Origin: Escherichia coli
GTDB taxonomy: Bacteria > Pseudomonadota > Gammaproteobacteria > Enterobacterales > Enterobacteriaceae
Assembly: GCF_044647545.1 (NCBI RefSeq)
Contig: NZ_CP172818.1
DNA length: 64,000 nt
Reading direction: 5' to 3' (one strand)
Of the stretch, positions 1 through 49,023 are shown one piece after another. Position 1 is the stretch's first letter, and each line of letters opens with the position of its first letter. The notes beneath the pieces were generated by a model. It was not told the origin of the DNA. It was given only the letters and a program-made list of their open reading frames with translations, and made no database searches. The position numbers and the translations under genes were made by a program.

Positions 1-316
1 GCTGTGGGAATGGTCCATTTATTTACAGGAATTTTGAAGATCTTAAACATTGCCCATGCAAAAGCCACATAGGTCAAAATAATCAGTAAATCCATAAGTA
101 TTACTCGGCAGAAGAGGTCTTGATGTCGGCGAGCTGTTTCTCCAGCCCGGCAATACGCTGTTGTAGTTGCACAACGCCGGAGGAGTCATGGTTTTGCATT
201 CCCCATCCCCGCTCCGGGCGGTAAAGCGTGGCCCAAATCCACAAAATGGCCAGATAACATGCAGCGTAAAAAGACTCACCCAACCAGCAACATGAATGGC
301 GTCGGCATGAGGATGA

Positions 317-325
317 TTACGTTTT
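317..325. repeat. IS1 target-site duplication, left copy (ttacgtttt)
   Basis: Identical 9-bp direct repeat ttacgtttt immediately flanks both IS1 ends (317-325 and 1095-1103). Confidence 0.85.
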
Positions 326-351
326 GGTGATGCTGCCAACTTACTGATTTA

Positions 352-657
352 GTGTATGATGGTGTTTTTGAGGTGCTCCAGTGGCTTCTGTTTCTATCAG
401 CTGTCCCTCCTGTTCAGCTACTTGACGGGGTGGTGCGTAACGGCAAAAGCACCGCCGGACATCAGCGTTATCTCTGCTCTCACTGCCGTAAAACATGGCA
501 ACTGCAGTTCACTTACACCGCTTCTCAACCCGGTACGCACCAGAAAATCATTGATATGGCCATGAATGGCGTTGGATGCCGGGCAACCGCCCGCATTATG
601 GGCGTTGGCCTCAACGCGATTTTACGTCACTTAAAAAACTCAGGCCGCAGTCGGTAA
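352..657 (+). CDS. insA: IS1 InsA-like protein, N-terminus altered by a +1 insertion relative to canonical insA
   Basis: ORF-track protein matches InsA from ...[31 protein letters not shown]... to the stop. The canonical GTG start (381) frame hits TGA after about 14 codons because of an extra T at about 422-423 (gctacTtgacgggg). Confidence 0.75.
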
Positions 658-1079
658 CCTCGCGCATACAGCCGGGCAGTGACGTCATCGTCTGCGCGGA
701 AATGGACGAACAGTGGGGCTATGTCGGGGCTAAATCGCGCCAGCGCTGGCTGTTTTACGCGTATGACAGGCTCCGGAAGACGGTTGTTGCGCACGTATTC
801 GGTGAACGCACTATGGCGACGCTGGGGCGTCTTATGAGCCTGCTGTCACCCTTTGACGTGGTGATATGGATGACGGATGGCTGGCCGCTGTATGAATCCC
901 GCCTGAAGGGAAAGCTGCACGTAATCAGCAAGCGATATACGCAGCGAATTGAGCGGCATAACCTGAATCTGAGGCAGCACCTGGCACGGCTGGGACGGAA
1001 GTCGCTGTCGTTCTCAAAATCGGTGGAGCTGCATGACAAAGTCATCGGGCATTATCTGAACATAAAACACTATCAATAA
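576..1079 (+). CDS. insB: IS1 InsB reading frame (transposase C-terminal part, normally expressed as InsAB' by -1 frameshifting)
   Basis: 167-aa ORF (...[19 protein letters not shown]...[15 protein letters not shown]) matching IS1 InsB; A-rich slippery region ttaaaaaactc near the insA stop. Confidence 0.85.
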
Positions 1080-1094
1080 GTTGGAGTCATTACC

Positions 1095-1103
1095 TTACGT
1101 TTT
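1095..1103. repeat. IS1 target-site duplication, right copy (ttacgtttt)
   Basis: Same 9-mer as 317-325, directly abutting the IS1 right end. Confidence 0.85.
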
Positions 1104-1647
1104 TTAGCAATCAGGTAGGGAATATCATGTAAAATAATAATCCCATAGAATATCACCAGAAATACAAAAATAAGCACTCCCAGTGCAAAATAGTCCAGGA
1201 ACATATTTCCCTCAAAGAATATAAAAAAGAACAATTAACGCATATTATGAAATGCCATGATGCAGTGCAACTTCCTTATTTATATAACGACATATTGTTT
1301 TTTATATACTTTCTGAAATGTGCTGTCTGGTTTTTCAACAGGACGAGGTTTATCATATTGAAATAGTGGAACTATTGGCCAAACTAATGAATAACTCCAG
1401 TAAAACATCCACAGTACAGATTAAGCGTATTAAACCTTCAATTATCTACCGTTTATTGCTGATTGGCCTCGGATCACCAATGGTGATTTACGGCCTGGTT
1501 CGCCCGCTAACCATCGAAACGCGAGATTAAACGCCCGGCAATACACGCCGGGCAGCTTCTGCCAGAAACGCACTTCTGTTGGCGTAGTCTGGGTTATTGC
1601 GCACGTAGGTTTAAAACGTAAATTGTAACAACGTGCGCTTTGTTTAT

Positions 1648-8970: not shown

Positions 8971-11900
8971 ATGAGCGGAAAACCGGCGGCGCGTCAGGGC
9001 GACATGACGCAGTATGGCGGTAGCATTGTCCAGGGTTCAGCCGGGGTACGTATTGGTGCCCCCACCGGCGTGGCCTGTTCGGTGTGCCCCGGCGGAGTAA
9101 CGTCCGGCCATCCGGTCAATCCGCTGCTCGGTGCAAAGGTCCTTCCCGGCGAGACAGACATCGCCCTGCCCGGCCCGCTGCCGTTCATTCTCTCCCGCAC
9201 CTACAGCAGTTACCGGACAAAAACGCCCGCGCCGGTGGGGAGCCTCGGCCCCGGCTGGAAAATGCCTGCGGATATCCGCTTACAGCTGCGCGATAACACA
9301 CTGATACTCAGTGATAACGGCGGCAGAAGCCTGTATTTTGAGCACCTGTTTCCCGGTGAGGACGGTTACAGCCGCAGCGAGTCACTCTGGCTGGTGCGCG
9401 GCGGCGTGGCGAAACTGGATGAAGGTCACCGGCTGGCCGCACTCTGGCAGGCGCTGCCGGAAGAGCTTCGCCTGAGTCCGCATCGTTATCTGGCGACGAA
9501 CAGTCCACAGGGGCCGTGGTGGGTACTCGGCTGGTGTGAGCGGGTGCCGGAGGCGGATGAGGTGCTGCCTGCGCCGCTGCCGCCGTACCGGGTACTGACC
9601 GGGCTGGTGGACCGCTTCGGGCGCACACAGACGTTCCACCGTGAGGCTGGCGGCGAATTCAGCGGCGAAATCACCGGCGTGACGGATGGCGCAGGCCGTC
9701 ACTTCCGGCTGGTACTGACCACGCAGGCGCTGCGGGCAGAAGAGGCCCGGCAGAAGGCCATTTCCGGCGGGACGGAACCGTCCGCTTTTCCTGATACCCT
9801 GCCGGACTACACGGAATATGGCCGGGACAACGGTATCCGTCTGTCTGCCGTGTGGCTGACACACGACCCTGAATACCCGGAGAATTTACCTGCCGCGCCG
9901 CTGGTGCGCTATGGCTGGACGCCACGCGGCGAACTGGCGGTGGTGTATGACCGCAGCAATACACAGGTGCGCAGCTTTACTTACGATGATAAATACCGGG
10001 GCCGGATGGTGGCGCACCGTCACACGGGCCGGCCGGAAATCCGTTACCGTTACGACAGTGACGGGCGGGTGACAGAACAGCTAAACCCGGCAGGCTTAAG
10101 CTACACGTATCAGTATGAGAAAGACCGCATCACCATCACCGACAGCCTGGACCGCCGTGAAGTCCTGCATACCGCAGGCGAAGGCGGCCTGAAGCGGGTG
10201 GTGAAAAAGGAACACGCGGACGGCAGCGTCACGCAGAGTCAGTTTGACGCGGTGGGCAGGCTTAAGACACAGACGGATGCCGCAGGCCGGACAACAGAAT
10301 ACAGCCCGGATGTGGTGACGGGCCTCATCACGCGCATCACCACGCCGGATGGCAGGGCATCGGCGTTTTACTATAACCACCACAGCCAGTTAACGTCAGC
10401 CACCGGGCCTGACGGGCTGGAAATACGCCGGGAATATGATGAATCCGGCCGTCTGATTCAGGAAACCGCCCCTGACGGCGATATCACCCGCTACCGTTAT
10501 GATAATCCACACAGTGACTTCCCCTGCGCAACGGAAGATGCCACCGGCAGCCGGAAAACCATGACGTGGAGCCGTTACGGTCAGTTGCTGAGCTTCACCG
10601 ACTGTTCCGGCTACCAGACCCGTTATGACCATGACCGCTTCGGGCAGATGACGGCGGTGCACCGCGAGGAAGGCCTGAGCCAGTGCCGCGCATACGACAG
10701 CCGTGGACAGTTAATTGCCGTGAAAGACACGCAGGGCCATGAAACGCGGTATGAATACAACATCGCCGGTGACCTGACCGCCGTCATTGCCCCGGACGGC
10801 AGCAGAAACGGGACACAGTACGATGCGTGGGGAAAGGCCATCCGTACCACGCAGGGCGGGCTGACCCGCAGTATGGAATACGATGCTGCAGGACGGGTCA
10901 TCCGCCTGACAAACGAAAACGGCAGCCACACCACCTTCCGTTACGATGTACTCGACCGGCTGATACAGGAAACCGGCTTTGACGGCCGCACACAGCGTTA
11001 CCACCACGACCTGACCGGCAAACTTATCCGCAGCGAGGATGAGGGGCTGGTCACCCACTGGCACTATGACGAAGCAGACCGCATCACGCAGCGAACGGTG
11101 AATGGTGAAACCGCAGAACAGTGGCGGTACGACGAACGCGGCTGGCTGACACAAATCAGCCATCTCAGCGAAGGGCACCGGGTGACGGTGCATTACGGGT
11201 ATGATGAGAAAGGCCGCCTGACCGGTGAGCGCCAGACGGTGCATCATCCGCAGACGGAAGCACTGCTCTGGCAGCATGAGACCAGACATGCGTACAACGC
11301 GCAGGGGCTGGCGAACCGCTGTATACCGGACAACCTGCCCGCCGTGGAATGGCTGACTTATGGCAGTGGTTACCTGGCAGGGATGAAACTCGGCGACACA
11401 CCGCTGGTGGAGTACACCCGCGACCGCCTGCACCGGGAAACGCTGCGCAGCTTCGGCCGTTATGAACTCACCACCGCTTATACCCCTGCCGGGCAGTTAC
11501 AGAGCCAGCACCTGAACAGCCTGCAGTATGACCGCGATTACACCTGGAACGACAACGGCGAACTCATTCGCATCAGCAGCCCGCGCCAGACCCGGAGTTA
11601 CAGCTACAGCGACTCCGGCAGGCTGACCGGCGTTCACACCACCGCAGCGAACCTGGATATCCGCATCCCGTATGCCACGGACCCGGCAGGTAACCGCCTG
11701 CCCGACCCGGAGCTGCACCCGGACAGCACCCTCAGCATGTGGCCGGATAACCGTATCGCCCGTGACGCGCACTATCTTTACCGGTATGACCGTCACGGCA
11801 GGCTGACGGAGAAAACCGACCTCATCCCGGAAGGGGTTATCCGCACGGATGATGAGCGGACTCACCGGTACCATTACGACAGCCGGCACCGGCTGGTGCA

Positions 11901-12750
11901 CTACACGCGGACACAATATGCAGAGCCGCTGGTCGAAAGTCGCTATCTTTACGACCCGCTGGGCCGCAGGGTGGCAAAACGGGTGTGGCGGCGTGAACGG
12001 GACCTGACGGGCTGGATGTCGCTGTCACGGAAACCGGAAGTGACCTGGTACGGCTGGGACGGCGACCGCCTGACCACGATACAGAACGACAGAACCCGCA
12101 TCCAGACGGTTTATCAGCCGGGGAGCTTCACACCACTCATCAGGGTCGAAACCGCCACCGGTGAGCAGGCGAAAACGCAGCGCCGCAGCCTGGCGGATGC
12201 GCTTCAGCAGTCCGGCGGCGAAGACGGTGGCAGTGTGGTGTTCCCGCCGGTGCTGGTGCAGATGCTCGACCGGCTGGAAAGTGAAATCCTTACTGACCGG
12301 GTGAGTGAGGAAAGCCGCCGCTGGCTGGCATCGTGCGGCCTGACGGTGGCGCAGATGCAAAACCAGATGGACCCGGTGTACACGCCGGCGCGAAAAATCC
12401 ACCTGTACCACTGCGACCATCGCGGCCTGCCGCTGGCGCTTGTCAGCACGGAAGGGGCAACAGAATGGTGCGCAGAATACGATGAGTGGGGCAACCTGCT
12501 GAATGAAGAGAACCCGCACCAGCTGCAACAGCTTATCCGCCTGCCGGGTCAGCAGTATGATGAGGAGTCCGGCCTGTATTACAACCGCCACCGCTATTAT
12601 GACCCGCTGCAGGGGCGGTATATCACTCAGGATCCGATTGGGCTGAAGGGGGGATGGAATTTTTATCAGTATCCGTTGAATCCGATATCAGACATCGAGC
12701 CCCCTGGGTTTATCTATGTGGGAGGATGCAAAATCGGGGGCATGTACTAA
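8971..12750 (+). CDS. rhsA: Rhs-family core protein (RhsA-type) with N-terminal PAAR-like region and YD repeats; very short atypical C-terminal tip
   Basis: 1259-aa ORF starting [26 protein letters not shown]; many YD/RHS repeats (RYRYDxxGR); conserved core end ...[29 protein letters not shown], followed by only [21 protein letters not shown] before the stop. GC-rich, unlike the AT-rich DNA downstream. Confidence 0.9.
12241..12686 (+). repeat. 3' end of rhs core; copy A of a dispersed direct repeat (copies at 14626-15069 and 17213-17298)
   Basis: About 450 bp nearly identical to 14626-15069; the last 80 bp or so also recur at 17213-17298. Boundaries are approximate. Confidence 0.8.
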
Positions 12751-13754
12751 TGGTCTTTGCGGCATATCAGCTGTGATGAGAGGTGCATAAGTTTTTCATA
12801 GACCGCATATGACGCCTTAATAACAATAAAATTAAAATATATTTTCAATAAAATCAATAGCCAAATAAAATAAATAAATAAATTTTCCCTGCACCTAGAA
12901 CGTGGAGAAAGTTAGTACATACTATGGATGCAATAGCATTGACATAATGGTGGGACGAATATTTTCACTTCGACTAATGTGGTAGATATCAGATTTGGAC
13001 GAAATATTTTAAGCAAAGATGAAAATAATTAAAATAAACAACGAATAAATACCACCCCATTAATAAACAATAGATAACCACGGGAAGGAAATAACAAACG
13101 GAAAAGGATCCGATGCCAGAGTTATCGGTAATATTAAAAAAAAAAATATAAATAAAATAAATAAATTTTATTTAGCACTCCCATTTTTTTTACACAACAT
13201 GGCCATAATAATAATTTTAAAATAATAATGACGGGAAAGAGAGAAAGAAGGTAAACTGTAAAAGGATTACAAAAATTTGGTCTACAAATACAGGTTATAG
13301 TAAAAAAATATTTTTTAGAATTTATTGTATCTTTTTTTTTTTACAACAACACAGGTCGCAGTGTAATTACAGAGATATTAAAATAATGCTCAAATTTATG
13401 AAGCAGTGAGGCAGAAGAATATACATATAAACGCTTCATTAAAACAAGTGGGTAATTTGGTTAAAAATAAACTAACATTGAATTACAATATATGTTAAAA
13501 TCAGGCAACCAAAAAGAAAAAATATAAAATATGATTAACAACAAGTCTTGTTGAAGGCACCATTCACTCAGACCAAATTGCTGGTGGGGTTTTTATTAGA
13601 AAATAGGCAAAAATGATGGGGTAATTCTGAATTTTGGCCACGGAAAATAAGTATGTAAGGATAATCAAACATCGTGTGCGCTGATGGCAGAGTAGGTGGA
13701 GGACTCCAGACAGTCAAACGATAAAAAAAGATAGCCTTTATGGAGGCTCCTGCA

Positions 13755-14597
13755 ATGTCAAATACATACCAGAAAAGAAAGGCAAGTAAAGAGTATGGTT
13801 TATATAATCAATGTAAGAAACTAAATGATGATGAATTATTTCGCTTACTTGATGATCACAATTCCTTGAAAAGGATTTCATCTGCCAGAGTATTACAGTT
13901 AAGAGGTGGGCAAGACGCTGTTAGATTGGTAATTGAGTTCTGCTCTGATAAAAATTATATCCGTAGAGATATCGGAGCATTTATACTCGGGCAAATAAAA
14001 ATTTGCAAAAAATGCGAAGATAATGTGTTTAATATTTTGAACAATATGGCATTGAATGATAAGAGCGCTTGCGTTCGAGCTACGGCAATCGAGTCAACGG
14101 CTCAGCGATGCAAGAAAAACCCAATTTATTCACCTAAAATAGTAGAACAATCTCAAATTACTGCTTTTGATAAATCGACTAATGTCAGACGTGCTACAGC
14201 ATTTGCTATTTCTGTTATCAATGATAAAGCAACAATTCCACTATTGATTAATCTGTTAAAAGATCCAAATGGAGATGTCAGAAACTGGGCCGCATTTGCA
14301 ATAAATATCAATAAATATGATAATAGTGATATTAGGGATTGTTTTGTGGAGATGCTTCAGGATAAAAATGAGGAAGTCCGTATTGAAGCAATAATCGGAC
14401 TTTCCTACAGAAAAGATAAAAGGGTTTTATCTGTTTTATGCGATGAGTTAAAAAAAAATACTGTTTATGATGATATCATTGAAGCTGCGGGTGAATTAGG
14501 TGATAAAACGCTACTTCCTGTTTTAGATACTATGTTGTACAAGTTTGATGACAATGAAATTATAACTTCCGCTATTGATAAGCTGAAGCGTTCATAG
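13755..14597 (+). CDS. yibA: HEAT/armadillo-repeat protein YibA
   Basis: 280-aa product from the ATG at 13755 (MSNTYQKRKASKEYGLYNQ...); repeated helical DxxVRxxAxxAL-like units; sits inside the Rhs accessory region as in K-12. Confidence 0.85.
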   Translation: MSNTYQKRKASKEYGLYNQCKKLNDDELFRLLDDHNSLKRISSARVLQLRGGQDAVRLVIEFCSDKNYIRRDIGAFILGQIKICKKCEDNVFNILNNMALNDKSACVRATAIESTAQRCKKNPIYSPKIVEQSQITAFDKSTNVRRATAFAISVINDKATIPLLINLLKDPNGDVRNWAAFAININKYDNSDIRDCFVEMLQDKNEEVRIEAIIGLSYRKDKRVLSVLCDELKKNTVYDDIIEAAGELGDKTLLPVLDTMLYKFDDNEIITSAIDKLKRS

Positions 14598-14638
14598 CGT
14601 GAGTTGCCTATGCACAGTGGGGTATTCCCGCCGGCACG

Positions 14639-15148
14639 GTGCAGATGCTCGATCGGCTGGAAAGTGAAATCCTGGCTGACCGGGTGAGTGAGGAAAGCCG
14701 CCGCTGGCTGGCATCGTGCGGCCTGACGGTGGAGCAGATGCAAAACCAGATGGACCCGGTGTTCACGCCGGCGCGAAAAATCCACCTGTACCACTGCGAC
14801 CATCGCGGCCTGCCGCTGGCCCTTATCAGCAAGGAAGGGACAACAGAATGGTACGCAGAATATGATGAATGGGGCAACCTGCTGAATGAAGAGAACCCGC
14901 ACCAGCTGCAACAGCTCATCCGCCTGCCGGGTCAGCAGTATGATGAGGAGTCCGGCCTGTATTACAACCGCCACCGCTATTATGACCCGCTGCAGGGGCG
15001 GTATATCACTCAGGATCCGATTGGGCTGAAGGGGGGATGGAATTTTTATCAGTATCCGTTGAATCCGATGACAACGGTTGATCCTCTTGGATTAAAATTT
15101 AAGGTAGAAGGTGACGGTCAGCTTTTGATTCTGCAATTGAATATTTGA
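14639..15148 (+). pseudogene. yibJ: Orphan Rhs core-end fragment (yibJ/rhsJ-like) with a truncated C-terminal tip
   Basis: GTG-initiated 169-aa ORF duplicating the last 150 residues or so of the rhsA core ([12 protein letters not shown]...[27 protein letters not shown]), then only 17 residues before the stop; no upstream core. Confidence 0.65.
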
Positions 15149-15209
15149 AACAAGATGATGAGATGAAAAAAAATAATTACGGCCCTTGAAAAGGATAAAC
15201 ACACTATAG

Positions 15210-15536
15210 TGGTTAGTTGTAATAATAATTATGATACACTCATTTAATCGATGGACAATGAGAATACACTGGGATCCTAAAGCTGCTCTATTGTGTACGG
15301 GTGTACAGAAAGATGGTAATTTTGATTTTAAAAATGACAATCTTGAGCCTGTAGTAGCATTAGGTCATGAAATAGCCCATGCAGAGGCTTATTAAATGAA
15401 GAATTCAGTGTTTATATGAAGCGAGTAAATACACCTGATCCTATATATGATAACGCAGAGGAAAGAAGAGTAATAACAGGTATTGAGAAACATGTTGCAC
15501 AAACATTAAAACAATGTGTTAGAAAAAACCACGGGG
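15210..15536 (+). pseudogene. Decayed remnant of a putative HExxH-motif toxin domain (two short frames separated by a frameshift)
   Basis: Frame 1 (about 15210-15396) translates ...WDPKAALLCTGVQKDGNFDFKNDNLEPVVALGHEIAHAEAY*; a second frame (about 15411-15536) gives MKRVNTPDPIYDNAEERRVITGIEKHVAQTLKQCVRKNHGE*. Read by eye; no ORF of 60 aa or more. Confidence 0.3.
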
Positions 15537-17284
15537 AATAATTTACCATGTACCTTAACAATATACGGTTGTAGTTGCTATATTTGTAAAGAGATTACCC
15601 CATCGAACCGGAATAAATGAAAATGACTATATTTTATGAGTTACTATCATCATTGAACAATCAGCATATAAGATAACCTCACCAAAAGCAGTTTAAACCA
15701 TGGTAAGTTGTAGAAGTGGGACATCTCGGCACCCCATTTTTTGTATGAAAAGTTACGAGAAATATATATTTTAATTTTTTTTTATATTATATATTAACCA
15801 AAATTAAAAAAACAACAATTTAAATAAAAAATTATTTATTACTTATATATTAACAATATCATAATAAATTCATTAAAACCGCTAGTTATAAATAATTATA
15901 AAAAAATCACAAATTGTTAAAATTTAATATTAATTATTTTAAAACAACCTAATGATATAAGATGGGGATTTATAGATCTAAGTGAAAGAGCTTGTTACTA
16001 TATTTTTATTTTTCTTTTGTTCCGGTGATTTGAATGGTATTAGTATGTTGAAAAAAATAGAAAAAAAGTGGAGGGGTCTAAGCCATAATATATCATTAGT
16101 GAAGAAAAGATGATGCATAAACTGAAATATAATATGGCAAAAAAGAATTCAAAGGCATCATTCTACTCCTGACTATTTTTCACATTTCCTCGAAGTTAAA
16201 TTGAAAATACGAGACGCAATATTAAAATTATACAAATGAATTCCAGAAAATCACGTAACGCTGCTTTTTTTACTAAACAATTCCATTTTATGTTTAAAAA
16301 TTAGATATCTATTAGAAGCTGTTTTTTATTGTTATAGATCATCAAAAATACTCCTTATAATAAAAGAACAAAATTGATTAAAAAATTGAAAATATTTATT
16401 ATCCATTACAACAATAAAAAATAAATTATATATTCTATTTGACTATTGGTTATTTCGTAGATGGTTGGGAAATATAACGATTATTGGAAAGATCAGCATC
16501 TCGGGATTTTTACAAGCAATATTGATTTTGAAAAGGGTATTCCTTTTCACGATACCATTCCAGATTTACCTGTATCAGATCTTGCATAATTTCACGAGAG
16601 CTTTATTAATTGGATGTGACATTCTCAGATGAAATAAAGCGTCATATTGTATGGAAACGATTTATACAAATCCCCAAATATTATTATGTAAAAATTTATC
16701 AAATAGAAATCAGACAGATGCGAAATCCAATGAGATCAAACAGCTACAAATTTAAAAATATTAAAAAAAATCATCACAAACGTATTAAAAATAAAAAATA
16801 CAAAAACATATTATTTATCTTAAAAGAAATCACCTAAATAAACCTAGAAAAATCATAAAATTAAATAACAAAATACATACCAATTATGAAAAATCACCAA
16901 AAAAATCTCTCACATTCATTCTATGAATTATTATTTCACTAATAAATCTAAAATCATTGCATCTCTCTCAATAATACAAACAAAAAAAAAAAAACGTCAA
17001 TATAATCATTCTTATTTAACCAAAGCTTCCACACAATCGAAACAGCACGGAAATAAGCCGCACTGGCGTCGACGCGGTAATGAATGAAGACGACTGCAAA
17101 ATAAGAAGAATCCGTAAACAGCAGAATTAGTTCTCAGGATACCGCACACGCTAGTAATATACGAATGATAAGTATTCAAGGCAGTGCTAAGACGTAATAT
17201 CGGTAACTTTTCCCGCCGCAGGGGCGGTATATCACTCAGGATCCGATTGGGCTGAAGGGGGGATGGAATTTTTATCAGTATCCG

Positions 17285-18741: not shown

Positions 18742-19878
18742 TCAATGATCCAAATAAAGATAATGCATCCAACTGGTCATTCTTAGCAGCACCTTCCGCA
18801 TCACCGAAACATGGCTGAAATGGTCGGAGTAAACTGCTACCTGGGCGTAAATGCCGTCGGGTAAGGCATCGATATCATCGTTAGGGTCCAGTTCAATGGT
18901 TCCCAGCACACCGTCCGTGCCGGGTACGACGGTTAATGATTGCAGTACCCCTTGCGCCTGATACGAACCGCCTGGCACGACAGGTAAAATACTAGTCAGT
19001 TTGCCGTGGAACACCTGCCCAGGTAGCGCGTTAAACACCACTTCCGCATCATCGCCGGGTTTCAGACGTAACAGCGAGTTCTGCCGAAATTGGGCGACAA
19101 TTTGCCGTTTTTGCTCGGGGATGAAAACCATCACCGGACGCAACGGCAAGGCAGCTGCGTATGTACCTGGGCGGATCAGTACCTGAGTAACGTAGCCATT
19201 GCTTGGTGCGCGAATGACAGTCTGCTCAAGGTTATATTTTGCTTCAGTAAGTTGCGCTCTTAAGCTCACAATCTGCGACTGCTCGCCGTTAACCATACTG
19301 TCGAGCTGGCTCTGGATCTGCGCCTGCTCCGCCACCGAGCCTTTCACCAGCGCGTCCTGCGCGAGGAAGTTTTGCCGCGCATCGTCGATGTCACGTTCCG
19401 AGAACGGATTCACTGCCGCCTGGCTGCCTTTCAGGTAACGTTGATAATTTTTAAACAGGCGGTCGCGCTCCGCTGAAACCTGGGTGGTGTTGGCCTGCGC
19501 TTCAGTGAGCTGCGCGCGCAGCGTCTTTATATTATGCGTCGCCGTCATCAGGTCAGCCTGAAGTCTGTCAACTCGCGCCTGGTAACGAACCGGGTCGAGC
19601 TTAAAAAGCACCTCGCCCTTCTGAATAAGCTGATTATTTTTGTCGGTGACTTCAGTAACAATTCCCGTCACCTGTGGCGTGATGGGGATCGCTATCACTG
19701 CCTTTTGCGCGGTAAAAGTGTAAGGGTGGTTGTAGTTCATCAACAAAATCAAACCACTCACCAGAAACACGCCTCCCAGCGCCGCCGTCGCCAGCGTCCA
19801 CTGATTTACCGGAATGCGGAAGATTTTAAAGACCGCCCACGCCAGCGCCACGTAAGTTAAAACAATCAATAGATCCAT
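18742..19878 (-). CDS. yibH: HlyD-family membrane fusion protein
   Basis: 378-aa ORF with N-terminal TM helix, long coiled-coil (RLQADL...LRAQLTEAQ) and C-terminal beta-barrel typical of HlyD/EmrA periplasmic adaptors. Confidence 0.85.
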
Positions 19879-19880
19879 AT

Positions 19881-20243
19881 TTAGATCTCCGGGAACGTGG
19901 AATAGTCAGTCTTTTTCTCGGCGGCGAGTTGATGCTCCAGCCGGGAAATTCGGTCAGAAAGTGCGGCGATTTCCGGGTCAGTCGCTTTCTCCTGCGACGC
20001 AACATGTGACTGCATACCCCAGCCACGCTCCGGTTGATAGAGCGTCGCCCAGATCCACAGGAACGGCCAGATAACATGCAGAGTAAACAGGCTCACCCAG
20101 CCCGCTGTATGAATAGCGTCGGCATGGGGGTGATTACGCTTTTTGGCAATCAGATAAGGGATGTCATGTATCGCGATGATTCCATAAAAAATCACCAGAA
20201 AGACGAAGATCAGCACTCCCAACGCGAAGTAGTTTAGAAACAT
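19881..20243 (-). CDS. yibI: DUF3302 inner-membrane protein
   Basis: 120-aa product from the ATG at 20243 ([45 protein letters not shown]...); the track ORF extends upstream to 20345. Confidence 0.85.
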
Positions 20244-39565: not shown

Positions 39566-40762
39566 TCAGGCGATAACGCCCAGTTGTTTACCAATACGCG
39601 TGAATGCTTCTACTGCACGCGTAATTTGCTCAGGGGTATGCGCCGCAGACATCTGGGTACGAATACGCGCCTGACCTTTCGGAACGACCGGATAGAAGAA
39701 ACCGGTGACGTAAATCCCCTCTTTTTGCAGCTCACGAGCAAATTTCTGCGCTACTACCGCATCGCCAAGCATGACCGGAATAATGGCGTGATCGGCTCCC
39801 GCCAGGGTAAAGCCCGCCGCCGACATTTGCTCACGGAACTGACGCGCGTTCGCCCACAGACGGTCACGCAGCTCGCTACCCGCTTCAACCATCTCCAGCA
39901 CTTTGATGGAAGCGGCAACAATGGCCGGTGCCAGCGAGTTGGAGAACAGGTACGGACGAGAACGCTGGCGCAGCCACTCAACCACTTCTTTGCGCGCCGC
40001 GGTATAACCACCAGAAGCCCCGCCCAATGCTTTACCCAACGTACCGGTAATGATGTCTACACGCCCCATCACATCGCAGTATTCATGGGAACCACGACCG
40101 TTTTCACCGACAAAACCGACCGCGTGGGAGTCGTCTACCATCACCAGGGCATCGTATTTATCTGCCAGATCGCAAACGCCCTTCAGATTGGCAATCACGC
40201 CGTCCATCGAGAACACACCATCGGTGGCAATCAGCACATGACGCGCACCGGCTTCACGCGCTTCTTTCAGACGAGCTTCCAGCTCCTGCATATCGTTGTT
40301 GGCATAGCGATAGCGTTTAGCTTTACACAGACGCACACCATCAATAATAGACGCGTGGTTCAGTGCGTCGGAGATAATGGCGTCTTCCGCGCCCAACAGC
40401 GTTTCAAACAGGCCACCGTTAGCATCAAAGCAGGAAGAGTAGAGAATCGCATCTTCCATCCCCAGGAAGGCCGCCAGTTTTTGTTCAAGCTCTTTATGAC
40501 TGTCCTGAGTGCCGCAAATAAAACGCACCGAAGCCATGCCGAAACCGTGAGAATCCATTCCCGCCTTTGCCGCCGCAATCAGATCCGGATGATTCGCCAG
40601 TCCGAGATAGTTATTGGCACAAAAGTTAATGACGTGGCTTCCATCAGCCACAGTGATATCTGCTTGCTGCGCAGACGTAATAATGCGCTCTTCTTTAAAC
40701 AACCCTTCCGCCCGTGCGGTTTCCAGATCGTTGGTTAACTGCTGATAACATTCTCCACGCAT
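39566..40762 (-). CDS. kbl: 2-amino-3-ketobutyrate CoA ligase (glycine C-acetyltransferase)
   Basis: 398-aa PLP-dependent ORF ([33 protein letters not shown]...). Confidence 0.95.
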
Positions 40763-40971
40763 TGCGATTCTCCAGACAGGGCAAATTCCAGCACATATTA
40801 CCCAAACTTATAGGTCGCGACGAGATGACGCGTTAACACTTCTGCAAAATTCAGGATAAATCCAGCCCCCTCACTTTTGGTGAATGGCTGAAGCCAACGT
40901 CATGTAGTGATATGATAAGAAGTATTCGTGTCTGAGATTGTCTCTGACTCCATAATTCGAAGGTTACAGCT

Positions 40972-41904
40972 ATGATCATCGTTACCGGCGGCGCGGGCTT
41001 TATCGGCAGCAACATCGTTAAAGCCCTGAATGATAAAGGCATCACCGATATTCTGGTGGTGGACAACCTGAAAGACGGCACCAAGTTTGTCAACCTGGTG
41101 GATCTGGATATCGCGGACTATATGGATAAGGAAGACTTCCTGATCCAGATTATGGCTGGCGAAGAGTTCGGCGATGTCGAAGCGATTTTCCACGAAGGCG
41201 CGTGCTCTTCCACCACCGAGTGGGACGGCAAGTATATGATGGATAACAACTATCAATACTCCAAAGAGCTGCTGCACTACTGTCTGGAGCGCGAAATCCC
41301 GTTCCTGTATGCCTCTTCCGCAGCCACTTACGGTGGACGCACCTCCGACTTTATTGAATCCCGCGAATATGAAAAACCGTTGAATGTCTACGGTTACTCA
41401 AAATTCCTGTTTGATGAATATGTTCGCCAAATCCTGCCTGAAGCGAACTCGCAGATTGTTGGCTTCCGTTATTTCAACGTTTATGGACCGCGTGAAGGCC
41501 ATAAAGGCAGCATGGCGAGCGTCGCTTTCCATCTCAACACCCAGCTTAATAACGGTGAATCACCGAAGCTGTTCGAAGGTAGCGAGAACTTTAAACGCGA
41601 CTTCGTCTATGTGGGCGACGTGGCAGATGTAAACCTGTGGTTCCTGGAAAATGGCGTTTCCGGCATCTTCAACCTCGGTACTGGTCGTGCGGAATCCTTC
41701 CAGGCTGTAGCAGATGCTACGCTTGCTTATCACAAGAAAGGCCAGATCGAATACATTCCGTTCCCGGATAAACTGAAAGGCCGCTATCAGGCGTTCACGC
41801 AGGCAGACCTGACGAATCTGCGCGCGGCGGGTTATGACAAACCGTTCAAAACCGTTGCCGAAGGCGTAACGGAATACATGGCCTGGCTGAATCGCGACGC
41901 ATAA
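40972..41904 (+). CDS. hldD: ADP-L-glycero-D-manno-heptose 6-epimerase
   Basis: 310-aa ORF ([33 protein letters not shown]...). Confidence 0.95.
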
Positions 41905-41913
41905 GAGCTCTGC

Positions 41914-42960
41914 ATGAAAATACTGGTGATCGGCCCGTCTTGGGTTGGCGACATGATGATGTCGCAAAGTCTCTATCGCACGCTCCAGGCGCGCTATCCC
42001 CAGGCGATAATCGACGTGATGGCACCGGCATGGTGCCGTCCATTATTATCGCGGATGCCGGAAGTTAACGAAGCTATTCCTATGCCTCTCGGTCACGGAG
42101 CGCTGGAAATCGGCGAACGCCGCAAACTGGGTCATAGTCTGCGTGAAAAGCGCTACGACCGCGCCTACGTCTTACCCAACTCCTTCAAGTCCGCATTAGT
42201 GCCTTTCTTCGCGGGTATTCCTCATCGCACCGGCTGGCGCGGCGAGATGCGCTACGGTTTACTTAACGATGTACGCGTGCTCAATAAAGAAGCCTGGCCG
42301 CTAATGGTGGAACGCTATGTCGCGCTGGCCTATGACAAAGGCATTATGCGTACAGCACAAGATCTGCCGCAGCCATTGTTATGGCCGCAGTTGCAGGTGA
42401 GCGAAGGTGAAAAATCATATACCTGTAATCAATTTTCGCTTTCATCAGAACGTCCGATGATTGGCTTTTGCCCGGGTGCGGAGTTTGGTCCGGCAAAACG
42501 CTGGCCACACTACCACTATGCGGAGCTGGCAAAGCAGCTGATTGATGAAGGTTATCAGGTGGTTCTGTTTGGCTCGGCGAAAGATCATGAAGCGGGCAAT
42601 GAGATTCTTGCCGCTTTGAATACTGAGCAGCAGGCATGGTGTCGTAACCTGGCGGGGGAAACACAGCTTGATCAAGCGGTTATCCTGATTGCAGCCTGTA
42701 AAGCCATTGTCACTAACGATTCTGGCCTGATGCACGTTGCGGCGGCGCTCAATCGTCCGCTGGTTGCCCTGTATGGTCCGAGTAGCCCAGACTTCACACC
42801 GCCGCTATCCCATAAAGCGCGCGTGATCCGCCTGATTACCGGCTATCACAAAGTGCGTAAAGGTGACGCTGCGGAGGGTTATCACCAGAGCTTGATCGAC
42901 ATTACTCCCCAGCGCGTACTGGAAGAACTCAACGCGCTATTGTTACAAGAGGAAGCCTGA
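41914..42960 (+). CDS. waaF: LPS heptosyltransferase II
   Basis: 348-aa ORF (MKILVIGPSWVGDMMMSQSLYRTLQARYP...). Confidence 0.95.
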   Translation: MKILVIGPSWVGDMMMSQSLYRTLQARYPQAIIDVMAPAWCRPLLSRMPEVNEAIPMPLGHGALEIGERRKLGHSLREKRYDRAYVLPNSFKSALVPFFAGIPHRTGWRGEMRYGLLNDVRVLNKEAWPLMVERYVALAYDKGIMRTAQDLPQPLLWPQLQVSEGEKSYTCNQFSLSSERPMIGFCPGAEFGPAKRWPHYHYAELAKQLIDEGYQVVLFGSAKDHEAGNEILAALNTEQQAWCRNLAGETQLDQAVILIAACKAIVTNDSGLMHVAAALNRPLVALYGPSSPDFTPPLSHKARVIRLITGYHKVRKGDAAEGYHQSLIDITPQRVLEELNALLLQEEA

Positions 42961-42963
42961 CGG

Positions 42964-43923
42964 ATGCGGGTTTTGATCGTTAAAACATCGTCGATGGGCG
43001 ATGTTCTCCATACGTTGCCCGCACTCACTGATGCCCAGCAGGCAATCCCAGGGATTAAGTTTGACTGGGTGGTGGAAGAAGGGTTCGCACAGATTCCTTC
43101 CTGGCACGCCGCCGTTGAGCGAGTTATTCCTGTGGCAATACGTCGCTGGCGTAAAGCCTGGTTCTCGGCCCCCATAAAAGCTGAACGCAAAGCGTTTCGT
43201 GAAGCGCTACAAGCAGAGAACTATGACGCAGTTATCGATGCTCAGGGGCTGGTAAAAAGCGCGGCGCTGGTGACGCGTCTGGCGCATGGCGTAAAGCATG
43301 GCATGGACTGGCAAACCGCTCGCGAACCTTTAGCCAGCCTGTTTTACAATCGTAAGCATCATATTGCGAAACAGCAGCACGCCGTAGAACGCACCCGCGA
43401 ACTGTTTGCCAAAAGTTTGGGCTATAGCAAACCGCAAACCCAGGGCGATTATGCTATCGCACAGCATTTCCTGACGAACCGGCCTACAGATGCTGGCGAA
43501 TATGCCGTATTTCTTCATGCGACGACCCGTGATGATAAACACTGGCCGGAAGAACACTGGCGAGAATTGATTGGTTTACTGGCTGATTCAGGAATACGGA
43601 TTAAACTTCCGTGGGGCGCGCCGCATGAGGAAGAACGGGCGAAACGACTGGCGGAAGGATTTGCTTATGTTGAAGTATTGCCGAAGATGAGTCTGGAAGG
43701 CGTTGCCCGCGTGCTGGCCGGGGCTAAATTTGTAGTGTCGGTGGATACGGGGTTAAGCCATTTAACGGCGGCACTGGATAGACCCAATATCACGGTTTAT
43801 GGACCAACCGATCCTGGATTAATTGGTGGGTATGGGAAGAATCAGATGGTTTGTAGGGCTCCAAGAGAAAATTTAAATAACCTCAACAGTCAAGCAGTTT
43901 TGGAAAAGTTATCATCATTATAA
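42964..43923 (+). CDS. waaC: LPS heptosyltransferase I
   Basis: 319-aa ORF (MRVLIVKTSSMGDVLHTLPALTDAQQAIPG...). Confidence 0.95.
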   Translation: MRVLIVKTSSMGDVLHTLPALTDAQQAIPGIKFDWVVEEGFAQIPSWHAAVERVIPVAIRRWRKAWFSAPIKAERKAFREALQAENYDAVIDAQGLVKSAALVTRLAHGVKHGMDWQTAREPLASLFYNRKHHIAKQQHAVERTRELFAKSLGYSKPQTQGDYAIAQHFLTNRPTDAGEYAVFLHATTRDDKHWPEEHWRELIGLLADSGIRIKLPWGAPHEEERAKRLAEGFAYVEVLPKMSLEGVARVLAGAKFVVSVDTGLSHLTAALDRPNITVYGPTDPGLIGGYGKNQMVCRAPRENLNNLNSQAVLEKLSSL

Positions 43924-43932
43924 AGGTAAAAC

Positions 43933-45192
43933 ATGCTAACATCCTTTAAACTTCATTCATTGAAACCTTACACTCTGAAATCATCAATGATTTTAGAGAT
44001 AATAACTTATATATTATGTTTTTTTTCAATGATAATTGCATTCGTCGATAATACTTTCAGCATAAAAATATATAATATCACTGCTATAGTTTGCTTATTG
44101 TCACTAATTTTACGTGGCAGACAAGAAAATTATAATATAAAAAACCTTATTCTTCCCCTTTCTATATTTTTAATAGGCTTGCTTGATTTAATTTGGTATT
44201 CTGCGTTTAAAGTAGATAATTCGCCATTTCGTGCTACTTACCATAGTTATTTAAATACTGCCAAAATATTTATATTTGGTTCTTTTATTGTTTTCTTGAC
44301 ACTAACTAGCCAGCTAAAATCAAAAAAAGAGAGTGTATTATACACTTTGTATTCTCTGTCATTTCTAATTGCTGGATATGCAATGTATATTAATAGCATT
44401 CATGAAAATGACCGCATTTCTTTTGGTGTAGGAACGGCAACAGGAGCAGCATATTCAACAATGCTAATAGGGATAGTTAGTGGCGTTGCGATTCTTTATA
44501 CTAAGAAAAATCATCCTTTTTTATTTTTATTAAATAGTTGCGCGGTACTTTATGTTCTGGCGCTAACACAAACCAGAGCAACCCTACTCCTGTTCCCTAT
44601 AATTTGTGTTGCTGCATTAATAGCTTATTATAATAAATCACCCAAGAAATTCACTTCCTCTATTGTTCTACTAATTGCTATATTAGCTAGCATTGTTATT
44701 ATATTTAATAAACCAATACAGAATCGCTATAATGAAGCATTAAATGACTTAAACAGTTATACCAATGCTAATAGTGTTACTTCCCTAGGTGCAAGACTGG
44801 CAATGTACGAAATTGGTTTAAATATATTCATAAAGTCACCTTTTTCATTTAGATCAGCAGAGTCACGCGCTGAAAGTATGAATTTGTTAGTTGCAGAACA
44901 CAATAGGCTAAGAGGGGCATTGGAGTTTTCTAACGTACATCTACATAATGAGATAATTGAAGCAGGGTCACTGAAAGGTCTGATGGGAATTTTTTCCACA
45001 CTTTTCCTCTATTTTTCACTATTTTATATAGCATATAAAAAACGAGCTTTGGGTTTGTTGATATTAACGCTTGGCATTGTGGGGATTGGACTCAGTGATG
45101 TGATCATATGGGCACGCAGCATTCCAATTATCATTATATCCGCTATAGTCCTCTTACTCGTCATTAATAATCGTAACAATACAATTAATTAA
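43933..45192 (+). CDS. waaL: O-antigen ligase (K-12 type)
   Basis: 419-aa polytopic membrane ORF (MLTSFKLHSLKPYTLKSSMILEIITYILCFF...), AT-rich. Confidence 0.9.
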   Translation: MLTSFKLHSLKPYTLKSSMILEIITYILCFFSMIIAFVDNTFSIKIYNITAIVCLLSLILRGRQENYNIKNLILPLSIFLIGLLDLIWYSAFKVDNSPFRATYHSYLNTAKIFIFGSFIVFLTLTSQLKSKKESVLYTLYSLSFLIAGYAMYINSIHENDRISFGVGTATGAAYSTMLIGIVSGVAILYTKKNHPFLFLLNSCAVLYVLALTQTRATLLLFPIICVAALIAYYNKSPKKFTSSIVLLIAILASIVIIFNKPIQNRYNEALNDLNSYTNANSVTSLGARLAMYEIGLNIFIKSPFSFRSAESRAESMNLLVAEHNRLRGALEFSNVHLHNEIIEAGSLKGLMGIFSTLFLYFSLFYIAYKKRALGLLILTLGIVGIGLSDVIIWARSIPIIIISAIVLLLVINNRNNTIN

Positions 45193-45223
45193 GAATAAAC
45201 AAGTTTAAGAAGTGAGTTAAAAC

Positions 45224-46297
45224 TCACTTCTTATCTATACAACTTAATCTCTTTACTGAATTAGTTAAAGTTTCAGTATCGATATCTTTTACCGTATATG
45301 TTGGGGATACTATTTGTATAGATTTATGATGATTCGGGGACCAAATTAAATGCGAGGGATATTCCGGAGTACGTGAATTAGGGTAAAATGCAAGCGTTGG
45401 TTTATGATAAGCCGCAGCGATATGAACAAGAGCTGTATCAACAGAAATGACAAAATCACTATACTTGGTCAACGCAACGGTATAAATAAACTCATCAAAT
45501 GGTAGTGTTTCGATTTCAAGTATTGGTATTGTCAATAAATCTTGCGGTAACCCGGTAAATATAATCCGATAATTTTCAAAGTGTGTTTTCACTTCTTGAT
45601 ATATAACTTTTATTTGCTCAAACGTAAGACGGCATATTTTTTTTGCACCTAATGGATTAATAATGACTATTCTTGTATCTCCAATAAATTCTTTTATTTT
45701 ATCTTCAACATCTACTGGTAAATGCAAGTCGTAGTTGGTGGAAAATTTACCCTCACCATAAATATGCTTCAGTATTTCTATTGCTCGTGTACTCATATGT
45801 TCTTTTAAACATTCATCGTGGGGATGGTAAAATGAATAGTAACGCTTATACCAATGATCAAAACCCAGAATGTAAGAATCTTTTAAACTTGATAATATTA
45901 AGCTATGCTTAAATGAGGGCATAGTTTCAAAGGGGTCTAATACAATATCGAACTGTAAATCCCGCAGATGCTTACATAGAGTAAGCATTTCAAGAAAACC
46001 GGTTGATTCTTTAATACAGAACTCAAATATATTTTTATTATTAGAGAGAAATTCCCCACCCTTTCTATTTGTGAGAAGAGTTATTTTAACCCCTTTACTA
46101 TAAAGTTCACGATAAATCGAACTTAATACAATTAGATCACCAAGTTTATTATTATCATGAATAATAAGGCATGATTTAACTTGTGCTGGATCTGTAATTT
46201 GATTATTTATTTTATTACGAAATAAAAAAGAAAGGAAATTAATCTTGATTTTGTTTATATAAAATCTTTTCTTTTTGTGAAAAGTTCCTAAGCGCAT
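45224..46297 (-). CDS. waaU: LPS core heptosyltransferase IV (WaaU/RfaK)
   Basis: 357-aa GT9-family ORF; position in the K-12 core cluster. Confidence 0.85.
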   Translation of the reverse strand: MRLGTFHKKKRFYINKIKINFLSFLFRNKINNQITDPAQVKSCLIIHDNNKLGDLIVLSSIYRELYSKGVKITLLTNRKGGEFLSNNKNIFEFCIKESTGFLEMLTLCKHLRDLQFDIVLDPFETMPSFKHSLILSSLKDSYILGFDHWYKRYYSFYHPHDECLKEHMSTRAIEILKHIYGEGKFSTNYDLHLPVDVEDKIKEFIGDTRIVIINPLGAKKICRLTFEQIKVIYQEVKTHFENYRIIFTGLPQDLLTIPILEIETLPFDEFIYTVALTKYSDFVISVDTALVHIAAAYHKPTLAFYPNSRTPEYPSHLIWSPNHHKSIQIVSPTYTVKDIDTETLTNSVKRLSCIDKK

Positions 46298-46329
46298 TTT
46301 TATACCATATTATTTTAGTTTCAGGATGA

Positions 46330-47181
46330 TTAATTAGCATAAGAATCGGTTGAAGTTCTATATTGCATTTTTTTTCTTGTCATATCTTTTGATTCTTCTG
46401 CACTGATGTCTTGAAGTTTAATAAATGGAATTACATCGTAAGAAATAGCTGTATCATCTGATAAATTATAAATATTAATATCTTTTACATTATCATGCAT
46501 AAAACGAAAAAATGGCAATATTTTGAATAAATCCCTACTTAATTCCGAGGGCATGGGATTTTTATTCTCATCATAGAAACGAGAACAGCTACCCGTTAAA
46601 TCAAGACCAGAACAAATAATCCGCGCATACTTAAGTGAATATGCGATTTGAATTGCAGCAAAGGCAATAGTATGGCATGAGCAATAACCAAGACTAATGT
46701 CCTTGCAAAATCCAACCAGACGACCTTTTTTAGACAACGGTACAGAGATCAGCAGTTCTTTGTGAATCTGTCTCAAAATATTAAATTTAATCTTCTTTAT
46801 AAAACCACCTTTTTCCCGACGGTAAAAGGACCGTAATACGAGGCAGTTCTGGAGGATATAAAGTTTATCTTCTTTGGAAGCGTGTTCATAAACGTCAACG
46901 TTTACTATGGTATAACGACTTCTCTGGCTAAATTTATAAAAATCATCACGACGCTGATGTAAAAATCGGACATCTGTAAGTACATATATAAAAGGAACGA
47001 TATTATTACTTAACAGATATTGCGCAGAACCATTGACAGCAATAATATCCTTTGTTCGTAATACTGACAAAGGTGTTTTTTGCGATGTAGGGCCCGAAAG
47101 AAAAATAATAACATCATCAGATATTTTATTTTCAATCAGGTTTTCAACATCTTTTTTGTCAATGTATCTAATATTCTTCAT
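46330..47181 (-). CDS. waaZ: LPS core biosynthesis protein WaaZ (KdoIII-related)
   Basis: 283-aa ORF (MKNIRYIDKKDVENLIENKISDDVIIFLSGPTSQ...); K-12 core-type gene. Confidence 0.8.
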   Translation of the reverse strand: MKNIRYIDKKDVENLIENKISDDVIIFLSGPTSQKTPLSVLRTKDIIAVNGSAQYLLSNNIVPFIYVLTDVRFLHQRRDDFYKFSQRSRYTIVNVDVYEHASKEDKLYILQNCLVLRSFYRREKGGFIKKIKFNILRQIHKELLISVPLSKKGRLVGFCKDISLGYCSCHTIAFAAIQIAYSLKYARIICSGLDLTGSCSRFYDENKNPMPSELSRDLFKILPFFRFMHDNVKDINIYNLSDDTAISYDVIPFIKLQDISAEESKDMTRKKMQYRTSTDSYAN

Positions 47182-47251
47182 GATAAACCTGTGAAATAAA
47201 TAACTCCGCTTAAAACTGTCCTGGTGAAGACATGTAATTGTGGGATTTTTT

Positions 47252-47950
47252 TTAGCGCGCTGGTTTCCCTTTCAAACGCCGCATAAAATTGCGCATTTTT
47301 TTACGATATACTAAAAGATAATAGCCTAGATCTCTAATCTCATTTTTAATACCGTAATGACGCTCTAAGTCAATACGATCTTTCGCTTTACGCTGCGCTG
47401 AAGCACGCTTTCCGGAGAGATCGATAATTCGAACCTCACCATTTTTTATAATGAAGTTACCACGATGGGGGTCGCCAGAAACCATGCCATGTTGATGTAA
47501 GGCATTAATTGATTGCTGAATTTTATTTTTTAGCGCATCATCAATATCGGGCATATCACACAACTCTATGCCATCAATATACTCGATGATCATGATATAA
47601 GTATGGACAAAACGTAAGGTTTTCCGTTCAGCCAATAAATAAAAGTCATTGAGTGTATTTAACCCTTCATTTCGTACTTTTTGGGTTTGCTCAAAAAGGC
47701 GTTCGTAATAATCACCTTTTAACAGAGACTTAAAGAAACGTTCGTTACGCTTAACTTTCGGAGAAAAAACCTTAAGAATCAATTTACCGTAATCGGTATC
47801 AATAAGCATAACTTTTGTATCATCAATAGAACGAAAAACCTTGATGATATTTATATTATAAGACAAGAAGTCATTTAATACATTGAGGTACTTTGAATTG
47901 TTTTCATCGGTAAAAACAACCAAGTCTTTGATCTTGCTCTTCTGAATCAT
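47252..47950 (-). CDS. waaY: LPS core heptose II kinase WaaY
   Basis: 232-aa ORF (MIQKSKIKDLVVFTDENNSKYLNVLNDF...), WaaP-like kinase fold. Confidence 0.85.
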   Translation of the reverse strand: MIQKSKIKDLVVFTDENNSKYLNVLNDFLSYNINIIKVFRSIDDTKVMLIDTDYGKLILKVFSPKVKRNERFFKSLLKGDYYERLFEQTQKVRNEGLNTLNDFYLLAERKTLRFVHTYIMIIEYIDGIELCDMPDIDDALKNKIQQSINALHQHGMVSGDPHRGNFIIKNGEVRIIDLSGKRASAQRKAKDRIDLERHYGIKNEIRDLGYYLLVYRKKMRNFMRRLKGKPAR

Positions 47951-47967
47951 AATAAACCAGTTAAATG

Positions 47968-48984: not shown

Positions 48985-49023
48985 AATGCTACCCTTATAT
49001 CATTACTTTATAGTTTCCCAGTT

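Follow-up and report, generated by a model that had tools for sequence, protein, structure and literature searches.

yiaW as a probable pseudogene in one Escherichia coli lineage, carrying an IS1 insertion and a single-base frameshift

Was the yiaW gene of this Escherichia coli genome inactivated, and if so, was it inactivated once or twice? In the stretch of DNA that we analyzed (the window, 64,000 nucleotides), yiaW encodes a DUF3302 protein and is read on the minus strand from 1204 to 101. The gene is interrupted after codon 36, at nucleotide 110 of its coding sequence, by a copy of IS1, and downstream of the interruption it departs from its reading frame at a short homopolymer. A sequence-only reading of the locus had proposed that the gene was inactivated twice, once by each of these lesions. 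Our analysis points the same way. With a high degree of confidence, we regard yiaW as an ordinary pseudogene in the source lineage, one that carries two independent inactivating lesions.

The insertion left a clear signature. The sequence-only reading had described an IS1 element flanked by identical 9-mers, and both the element and its flanks were confirmed base for base, with the two 9-mers each reading TTACGTTTT:

317-325, unstranded: left copy of the target-site duplication, from direct reading and a script
326-1094, plus strand: IS1 element, IS1A-like, 769 bp, with insA and insB' running opposite to yiaW
1095-1103, unstranded: right copy of the target-site duplication, from direct reading and a script

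Within the 64 kb, this 9-mer occurs just twice on the plus strand, both times directly abutting the element, which is the sole IS1 copy in the window. Duplications generated by IS1 are 8 or 9 bp long (PMC12903888), and the perfect 9-bp duplication at this locus falls within that range. When positions 326-1103 are excised (i.e., the element and one copy of the repeat), the remaining DNA forms a gap-free junction relative to intact yiaV-yiaW-aldB loci. As the earlier reading had claimed, excision also restores yiaW: the first 61 codons of the minus-strand gene are exactly those of YiaW. Because the 9-bp identity at both ends of the element is accompanied by collinearity after excision, the arrangement is not due to chance. 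IS1 prefers AT-rich targets, and the G+C content of the unique part of the 5' fragment (1104-1204), at 34% versus 48% for the whole window, fits that preference. The first lesion would then be a simple transposition of IS1 into the AT-rich 5' third of yiaW, in which the transposase may have made 9-bp staggered cuts at the target, with repair leaving the 9-mer in duplicate. Translation that begins at the yiaW start codon would now end 7 codons inside IS1.

As a consequence, the gene lies in two pieces, and a short hybrid frame runs across one of the junctions:

1095-1204, minus strand: yiaW 5' fragment, with its ATG at 1204-1202, holding codons 1-36 plus 2 nt
101-325, minus strand: yiaW 3' fragment, from the rest of codon 37 to the TAA at 103-101, in two frames owing to a 1-nt deletion
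1073-1204, minus strand: read-through ORF of 43 aa, joining YiaW residues 1-36 to KVMTPTY from the junction and the right inverted repeat (IRR) of IS1

RefSeq lists the 43-aa read-through ORF as a protein (WP_400165086.1). This is probably a misannotation, since the locus appears to be a pseudogene: judged by sequence comparison within the assembly, frame-breaking lesions relative to intact orthologues are present, and the adjoining genes are clean. In MG1655, the corresponding gene (b3587) is intact and free of IS1, in keeping with the statement in the sequence-only reading that this insertion is not part of the MG1655 IS1 complement.

The inserted element is itself damaged. Its main features are as follows:

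326-348, plus strand: IRL, the left terminal inverted repeat, GGTGATGCTGCCAACTTACTGAT
381-425, plus strand: truncated insA, with a GTG start at 381 and a premature TGA at 423-425, at codon 15
576-1079, plus strand: intact insB' reading frame, which carries the DDE transposase domain but has no usable upstream InsA part
633-639, plus strand: A6C (AAAAAAC) programmed -1 frameshift motif, intact
1072-1094, minus strand: IRR, the right terminal inverted repeat, GGTAATGACTCCAACTTATTGAT, present as its reverse complement at the element end

Over its full length, the element is 99.6% identical in nucleotide sequence to 768-bp copies annotated as IS1A. It shares with IS1A of E. coli K-12 and Shigella the 9-bp duplication, the AT-rich target, and the terminal inverted repeats; IRL and IRR match each other at 18 of 23 positions, and both are the same as in IS1A copies. 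The layout of the IS1 family (insA, A6C, and insB') is also present, along with the Pfam domains Zn_ribbon_InsA (partial), HTH_Tnp_IS1, and DDE_Tnp_IS1. What sets the window copy apart from IS1A is a length of 769 bp, one more than the canonical 768, and an insA that is truncated at codon 15. Both differences trace to an extra T at 422/423, the single gap in an alignment with four IS1A copies, where the window has CTACTTGACGG and IS1A has CTACTGACGG. Removal of this T yields a normal 91-aa InsA. Among the best IS1 match from each of 9,598 E. coli records, no identical copy was found, and the top match was 99.6%.

The extra T has implications for the mobility of the element. An intact insA, on which autonomy depends, is missing from this copy. 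The InsAB' transposase consists of the InsA N terminus fused to InsB' by -1 frameshifting at A6C, and it acts mostly in cis, with weak activity in trans that can move elements that retain only their ends (PMC12903888). With a stop at codon 15 of insA, the window copy would be expected to supply neither the InsA repressor nor the InsAB' transposase. Given its intact ends and the weak activity in trans, it could nevertheless be remobilized by the transposase of another IS1. Judging from its sequence, the copy is thus probably nonautonomous, able to move again only with transposase from elsewhere, and it may have decayed after it inserted. A scan of positions 1-1760 for promoters and terminators yielded numbers in the range expected from shuffled sequence, and no promoter pointing outward was found at IRL.

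The second lesion lies in the 3' fragment, together with two other changes that are private to the window:

243-246, unstranded: A4, read as T4 on the coding strand, in place of the A5 of other alleles; a 1-nt deletion that shifts the frame after Phe61
175-177, unstranded: private 3-bp insertion, CGC on the plus strand and GGC on the coding strand, adding a Gly in frame with the original YiaW
118-119, unstranded: private dinucleotide TC, versus AT in all comparators, changing coding AAATCC to AAGACC and Ser to Thr

The sequence-only reading had placed a further lesion in the A4 run and had stated that a -1 change of frame was needed to reach the conserved C terminus. Comparison with other alleles bears this out. 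All 10 comparison alleles (MG1655 and nine others) have T5 at this site (CCx TTT TTG TGG), versus CCA TTT TGT GG in the window. Past Phe61, the YiaW C terminus lies in another frame, and a -1 shift restores the wild-type protein. The alignment to the K-12 yiaV-yiaW region that had been recommended as a check is collinear, with A5 in MG1655. The comparison extends to window positions 60-325 in the 3,776 complete E. coli genomes with that segment, where the state of the run was judged by match length and identity: the top hits listed span 264 bases versus 266 in the query, at 97.8% identity, and full-length matches never exceeded that identity. This is exactly the pattern produced by the three private differences (the 1-nt deletion, the 3-bp insertion, and TC for AT). 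The frameshift would be explained most simply by replication slippage, through which one T may have been lost from the T5 run of the coding strand.

The two other private changes both fall in the variable C-terminal part of the protein, a length-variable and poorly conserved stretch of DUF3302, and they could have arisen either before or after inactivation. The Thr variant was seen in an intact allele on only a single ENA contig, and the allele with the 3-bp insertion had no match among metagenome contigs. We considered several sources for these changes. Gene conversion from yibI, a paralogue of yiaW, was rejected since the C-terminal parts of the two genes are not homologous. A 108-aa Citrobacter-type allele was also rejected as a donor, given that its extra residue is a terminal Tyr and that no other donor SNPs are present. 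Finally, the private changes are not significantly clustered in the 3' fragment: three of four events lie there, in 31% of the sequence compared (binomial estimate, ~0.09).

An argument can be made that only the IS1 insertion is real, and that consensus or polishing errors account for the A4 run and possibly for the additional T of IS1, in which case yiaW would have been inactivated once. Single-base indels in homopolymers are the commonest assembly error, and the small changes found in 1.1 kb (three indels and approximately three substitution events) are richer in indels than expected from neutral decay. Yet, of the 39 MG1655 genes that span the window, 36 have one full-length and gap-free match each (tblastn), the exceptions being yiaW, rhsA (whose C-terminal tip is divergent), and htrL (which is absent), making a general assembly error unlikely. 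Furthermore, two blocks with a total of 21.5 kb, intergenic DNA included, contain zero indels relative to MG1655. With indel errors at less than ~1 per 20 kb, two to three errors in 1.1 kb would be improbable, unless the IS1 repeat disturbed local polishing. The extra T does sit inside a repeat present in several copies, the kind of sequence that short-read polishing handles least well, but the A4 run lies in unique sequence ~80 bp outside the repeat, and A5 is a short run. The accompanying 3-bp and dinucleotide changes are also atypical types of error. Public data can be read in more than one way. Seven other contigs, with at least two allelic backgrounds among them, encode the same T5-to-T4 product (126 aa, ...WPFCGFGPRF...). 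Two of these contigs (L029 and L033) belong to frameshift-ridden assemblies in which yiaY, yiaV, and yiaU are split, which suggests that the T4 frameshift is an error there, whereas the remaining five have intact neighboring genes. The recurrence of T4 on contigs of such mixed quality fits both a slippage hotspot and a recurrent error. Weighing these observations, we consider the A4 run at 243-246 to be probably real, and a single inactivation accompanied by polishing errors to be improbable.

If the frameshift is real, the gene might still be expressed through programmed frameshifting, with ribosomes slipping by -1 at CCA UUU UGU such that full-length YiaW is made. From a reading of the sequence, a -1 slip at T4 would recreate the exact wild-type P-F-L-W-I-W. 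However, there is no slippery heptamer of the form X XXY YYZ at 240-250, the split gene is not conserved (the 10 aligned alleles and the wider family are single ORFs with T5), and the upstream IS1 in any case deprives the 3' fragment of a start codon and promoter. We attach almost no weight to this alternative. Nor does the route by which IS1 arrived seem to have been an IS1-mediated rearrangement, such as a deletion, an inversion, or the resolution of a cointegrate. IS1-bounded deletions that extend into yiaW from yiaL, yiaM, or yiaN do exist in other genomes, but rearrangements of this kind leave unlike sequences on the two sides of the element, as seen in L023-L028, whereas the flanks in the window share one neighborhood. 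Because the 9-bp target is perfectly duplicated, the signature of a simple insertion, and the intact locus is collinear with the window on either side of the element, we exclude such an origin with near certainty. The reading that we favor is therefore still that of a simple IS1 insertion and a separate frameshift.

The identity of the disrupted gene is well supported. When the IS is removed and the missing T restored, the reconstructed YiaW shares 97% identity with the YiaW that is common in E. coli and matches the Pfam family DUF3302 (PF11742) along the full profile (E = 1.9e-43, positions 1-77 of 77). The sequence-only reading had called yiaW a paralogue of yibI, and the comparison agrees: YiaW and the YibI of the same window share 74% identity (E = 5e-61), and both belong to DUF3302. 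The neighborhood is also conserved, with the order yiaV-yiaW-aldB kept and collinear with MG1655 b3586-b3588 and with other genomes. The partner genes are found at two places in the window:

1-95, minus strand: 5' end of yiaV (HlyD-family membrane-fusion protein), with its ATG at 95-93, collinear with yiaV of L004 and of MG1655
18742-20243, minus strand: paralogous pair yibI (19881-20243) and yibH (18742-19878), intact, with proteins 100% identical to those of K-12

Just 95 bases of yiaV lie inside the window, and residues 1-31 of its paralogue YibH match window positions 95-3 (tblastn). YiaW and YibI are small inner-membrane proteins of DUF3302 encoded beside the HlyD-family proteins YiaV and YibH, and the window locus shares with this group the full PF11742 profile and the synteny. 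It differs from intact YiaW in that it is untranslatable as one protein and carries the private Gly insertion and the Ser-to-Thr change.

This arrangement suggests what the loss of yiaW may have entailed. The yiaW stop codon (103-101) is separated from the yiaV start by five bases, and from this spacing yiaW and yiaV are likely to share an operon. IS1 insertions are classically polar, and with yiaV beginning so close to the end of yiaW, the insertion would be expected to reduce yiaV expression. At the same time, the intact yibI-yibH pair could provide functional redundancy, which means that the loss of yiaW was probably tolerated. We infer that the loss was neutral, and yiaW may have been under weak or no purifying selection at the time that it decayed.

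Our results also bear on how widespread this allele is. The sequence-only reading had viewed the insertion as a strain marker, and every search that we made is consistent with this. IS1 was found at the yiaW site of the window in 0 of 5,426 complete E. coli genomes, where the best full-length match was 99.1% identical and had its IS1 elsewhere. A 35-mer across the IS1-yiaW junction was absent from 241 million metagenome records, and the 43-aa read-through peptide is found on a single E. coli contig, of 4,499,902 bp, in an index of 15 billion proteins. A scan of genome contigs for the A4 allele gave no match, and no contig was retrieved as encoding the window-specific ORFs, a 1259-aa Rhs, or the 43-aa fusion. 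Use of the junction as a strain or lineage marker is thus supported. Attempts to identify close relatives by other means were less informative. Three draft contigs that share a rare Kbl variant with the window were rejected as close relatives since they carry htrL, which the window lacks, and AldB was rejected as a guide because it is too common. Separately, we observed that NZ_CP026085.1, which is labeled DH5alpha, differs from MG1655 at the yiaW locus.

Although the junction is unique among the assemblies searched, the gene has been disrupted by IS1 elsewhere. In nine other genomes, we documented eight different right-hand IS1 junctions in yiaW or yiaV, at reference positions 294 (in yiaV), 540, 575, 602, 613, 638, 668, and 694, compared to 615 in the window. 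Two of these events are simple insertions, with duplications of 8 and 9 bp; the rest include the IS1-bounded deletions mentioned above. The natural cases (MSB1_9I, BDSF8-3, D72, ET881, PEC1003, PSS-04, T16R, and CFSAN064036) have in common with the window the orientation of IS1 and one end in yiaW, but every junction is different. The nearest, that of D72, is 2 nt away and lacks the left flank, and most of the natural cases, unlike the window, are deletions that take yiaV and adjoining yia genes. PEC1003 and PSS-04 share junction 638 and differ in IS1 isoform and left flank. A similar event has been described in the laboratory, where IS1 inserted into yiaW (263/324 nt, with a 9-bp duplication) in three of the six lines that had been exposed to macrophages and in no control line (PMC3861542). 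These macrophage-evolved derivatives of MC4100 (Miskinyte et al. 2013, PMC3861542; Proenca et al. 2017, PMC5495878) resemble the window in the gene, the element, and the 9-bp duplication. They differ in the site of insertion (263/324 nt rather than nt 110), in background (a laboratory K-12 lineage rather than a natural non-K-12 one), and in that no frameshift was reported in MC4100.

Such recurrence raises the possibility that selection, and not neutral decay, lies behind the loss of yiaW, a reading that is compatible with our main account. Under this alternative, inactivation would be recurrent and adaptive, for example through an interaction with hosts or macrophages, as the rise of IS1 insertions in the macrophage-exposed lines might suggest. 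On the other hand, a yiaW::aph mutant showed no phenotype in phagosome maturation (PMC5495878). The natural record offers further points in favor of selection, all of them raw counts. Alongside the many independent IS1 junctions, many draft assemblies have contigs that break off inside yiaW and leave truncated N-terminal peptides of 28-37 aa, yiaW has several distinct alleles with -1 frameshifts, and ~30% of complete genomes are without the segment at window positions 60-325 altogether. However, the preference of IS1 for AT-rich DNA, such as the 5' fragment at 34% G+C, would explain the recurrence equally well, and some of these frameshifts probably reflect errors in sequencing. In addition, with intact yibI-yibH paralogues, selection on yiaW may merely be relaxed. 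We therefore consider selected loss to be unlikely, though not negligibly so. A more elaborate version appears more doubtful still: that yiaW, together with yiaV, has repeatedly been discarded under selection, either through IS1 targeting of its AT-rich 5' third or through runs prone to slippage, and that the double-hit allele of the window, with its decayed IS1, is an old, fixed example of a pathoadaptive or niche-adaptive change of which the macrophage evolution experiments gave an early glimpse. Neutral loss of a gene that bears two lesions is the account that we retain.

Taken together, the insertion that we describe is a new site in one genome for a thoroughly known type of event, and it reveals nothing new about IS1 or gene decay. 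Beyond what the sequence-only reading had noted, our analysis adds that the IS1 copy is defective, that the 3' part of yiaW carries two further private changes, and that yiaW is a recurrent target of IS1. For the one E. coli genome in question, the junction is a clean lineage marker that can be tested by PCR. [quoted passage not shown] These recurrent hits could justify a population-level test of whether the loss of yiaW and yiaV is selected.

The IS1 copy that splits yiaW in the window is 769 bp long and carries an extra T (+1) at 422/423, within 381-425, which places a TGA at codon 15 of insA. With this stop in place, neither InsA nor InsAB' can be encoded by the element. When the top IS1 match of each E. 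coli record was compared with it, none was identical. A 43-aa yiaW-IS1 read-through ORF (1073-1204, minus strand) is listed in RefSeq as a normal protein, "DUF3302 domain-containing protein" (WP_400165086.1), and the locus bears no pseudogene mark there.

Other IS1 end positions, at least eight of them, were found within yiaW or yiaV (L001, L003, and L023-L028, the yiaW-region loci of other E. coli). ET881, PEC1003, and 2017.06.04CC have a left IS1 junction in yiaM in common and three different right junctions, a pattern suggestive of successive nested deletions. PEC1003 also has its right junction in common with PSS-04, although their IS1 isoforms are different and so are their left flanks. 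Public assemblies also contain several distinct yiaW alleles with a -1 frameshift (proteins P0300-P0309; loci L029-L035), every one of which results in a 126-aa product ending in MGNV. The T5-to-T4 deletion of the window (WPFCGFGPRF) recurs in four of these sequences, and some originate from clearly error-prone assemblies.

A private 3-bp insertion in yiaW creates a new GCCGG (176-180) that is complementary to a CCGGC 25 bases upstream (146-151); it is conceivable that the insertion arose by a quasi-palindrome template switch. Compared with other alleles, there is a 12-bp insertion along with a 2-bp deletion (1542-1561 and 1665), both located in a terminator/REP-like spacer between a 47-aa hypothetical ORF and aldB.

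Separately, the RefSeq record NZ_CP026085.1 (4.83 Mb; loci L004 and L019), labeled "DH5alpha," is unlike K-12 at this locus: its yiaW allele differs from that of MG1655, ehaG is intact, and htrL is absent. The strain label is probably wrong.

When compared with the K-12 reference MG1655 (L020), the window (1-64000) is a mosaic. Positions 1-1270 differ only very slightly from an allele that is common and not of K-12 type. The rhsA-like core ORF (8971-17100 region) encodes 1259 aa, whereas its K-12 counterpart has 1377 aa; the C-terminal tip also differs, and the source contig is the only one with exactly this sequence; the next 4 kb of rhs-associated DNA align poorly to K-12. From aldB to kbl, identity to MG1655 is only 95-97%, and among complete genomes matching at high coverage none exceeds 99%. 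Whereas htrL sits between kbl and rfaD in MG1655, it is absent from the window at 40762-40972, with a loss of ~1.3 kb, and is present in draft genomes with the same rare Kbl variant. Finally, identity to K-12 is 99.4% across the waa cluster (40924-50885), and the WaaL, U, Z, Y, J, and O proteins are the same, corresponding to the K-12 core type.
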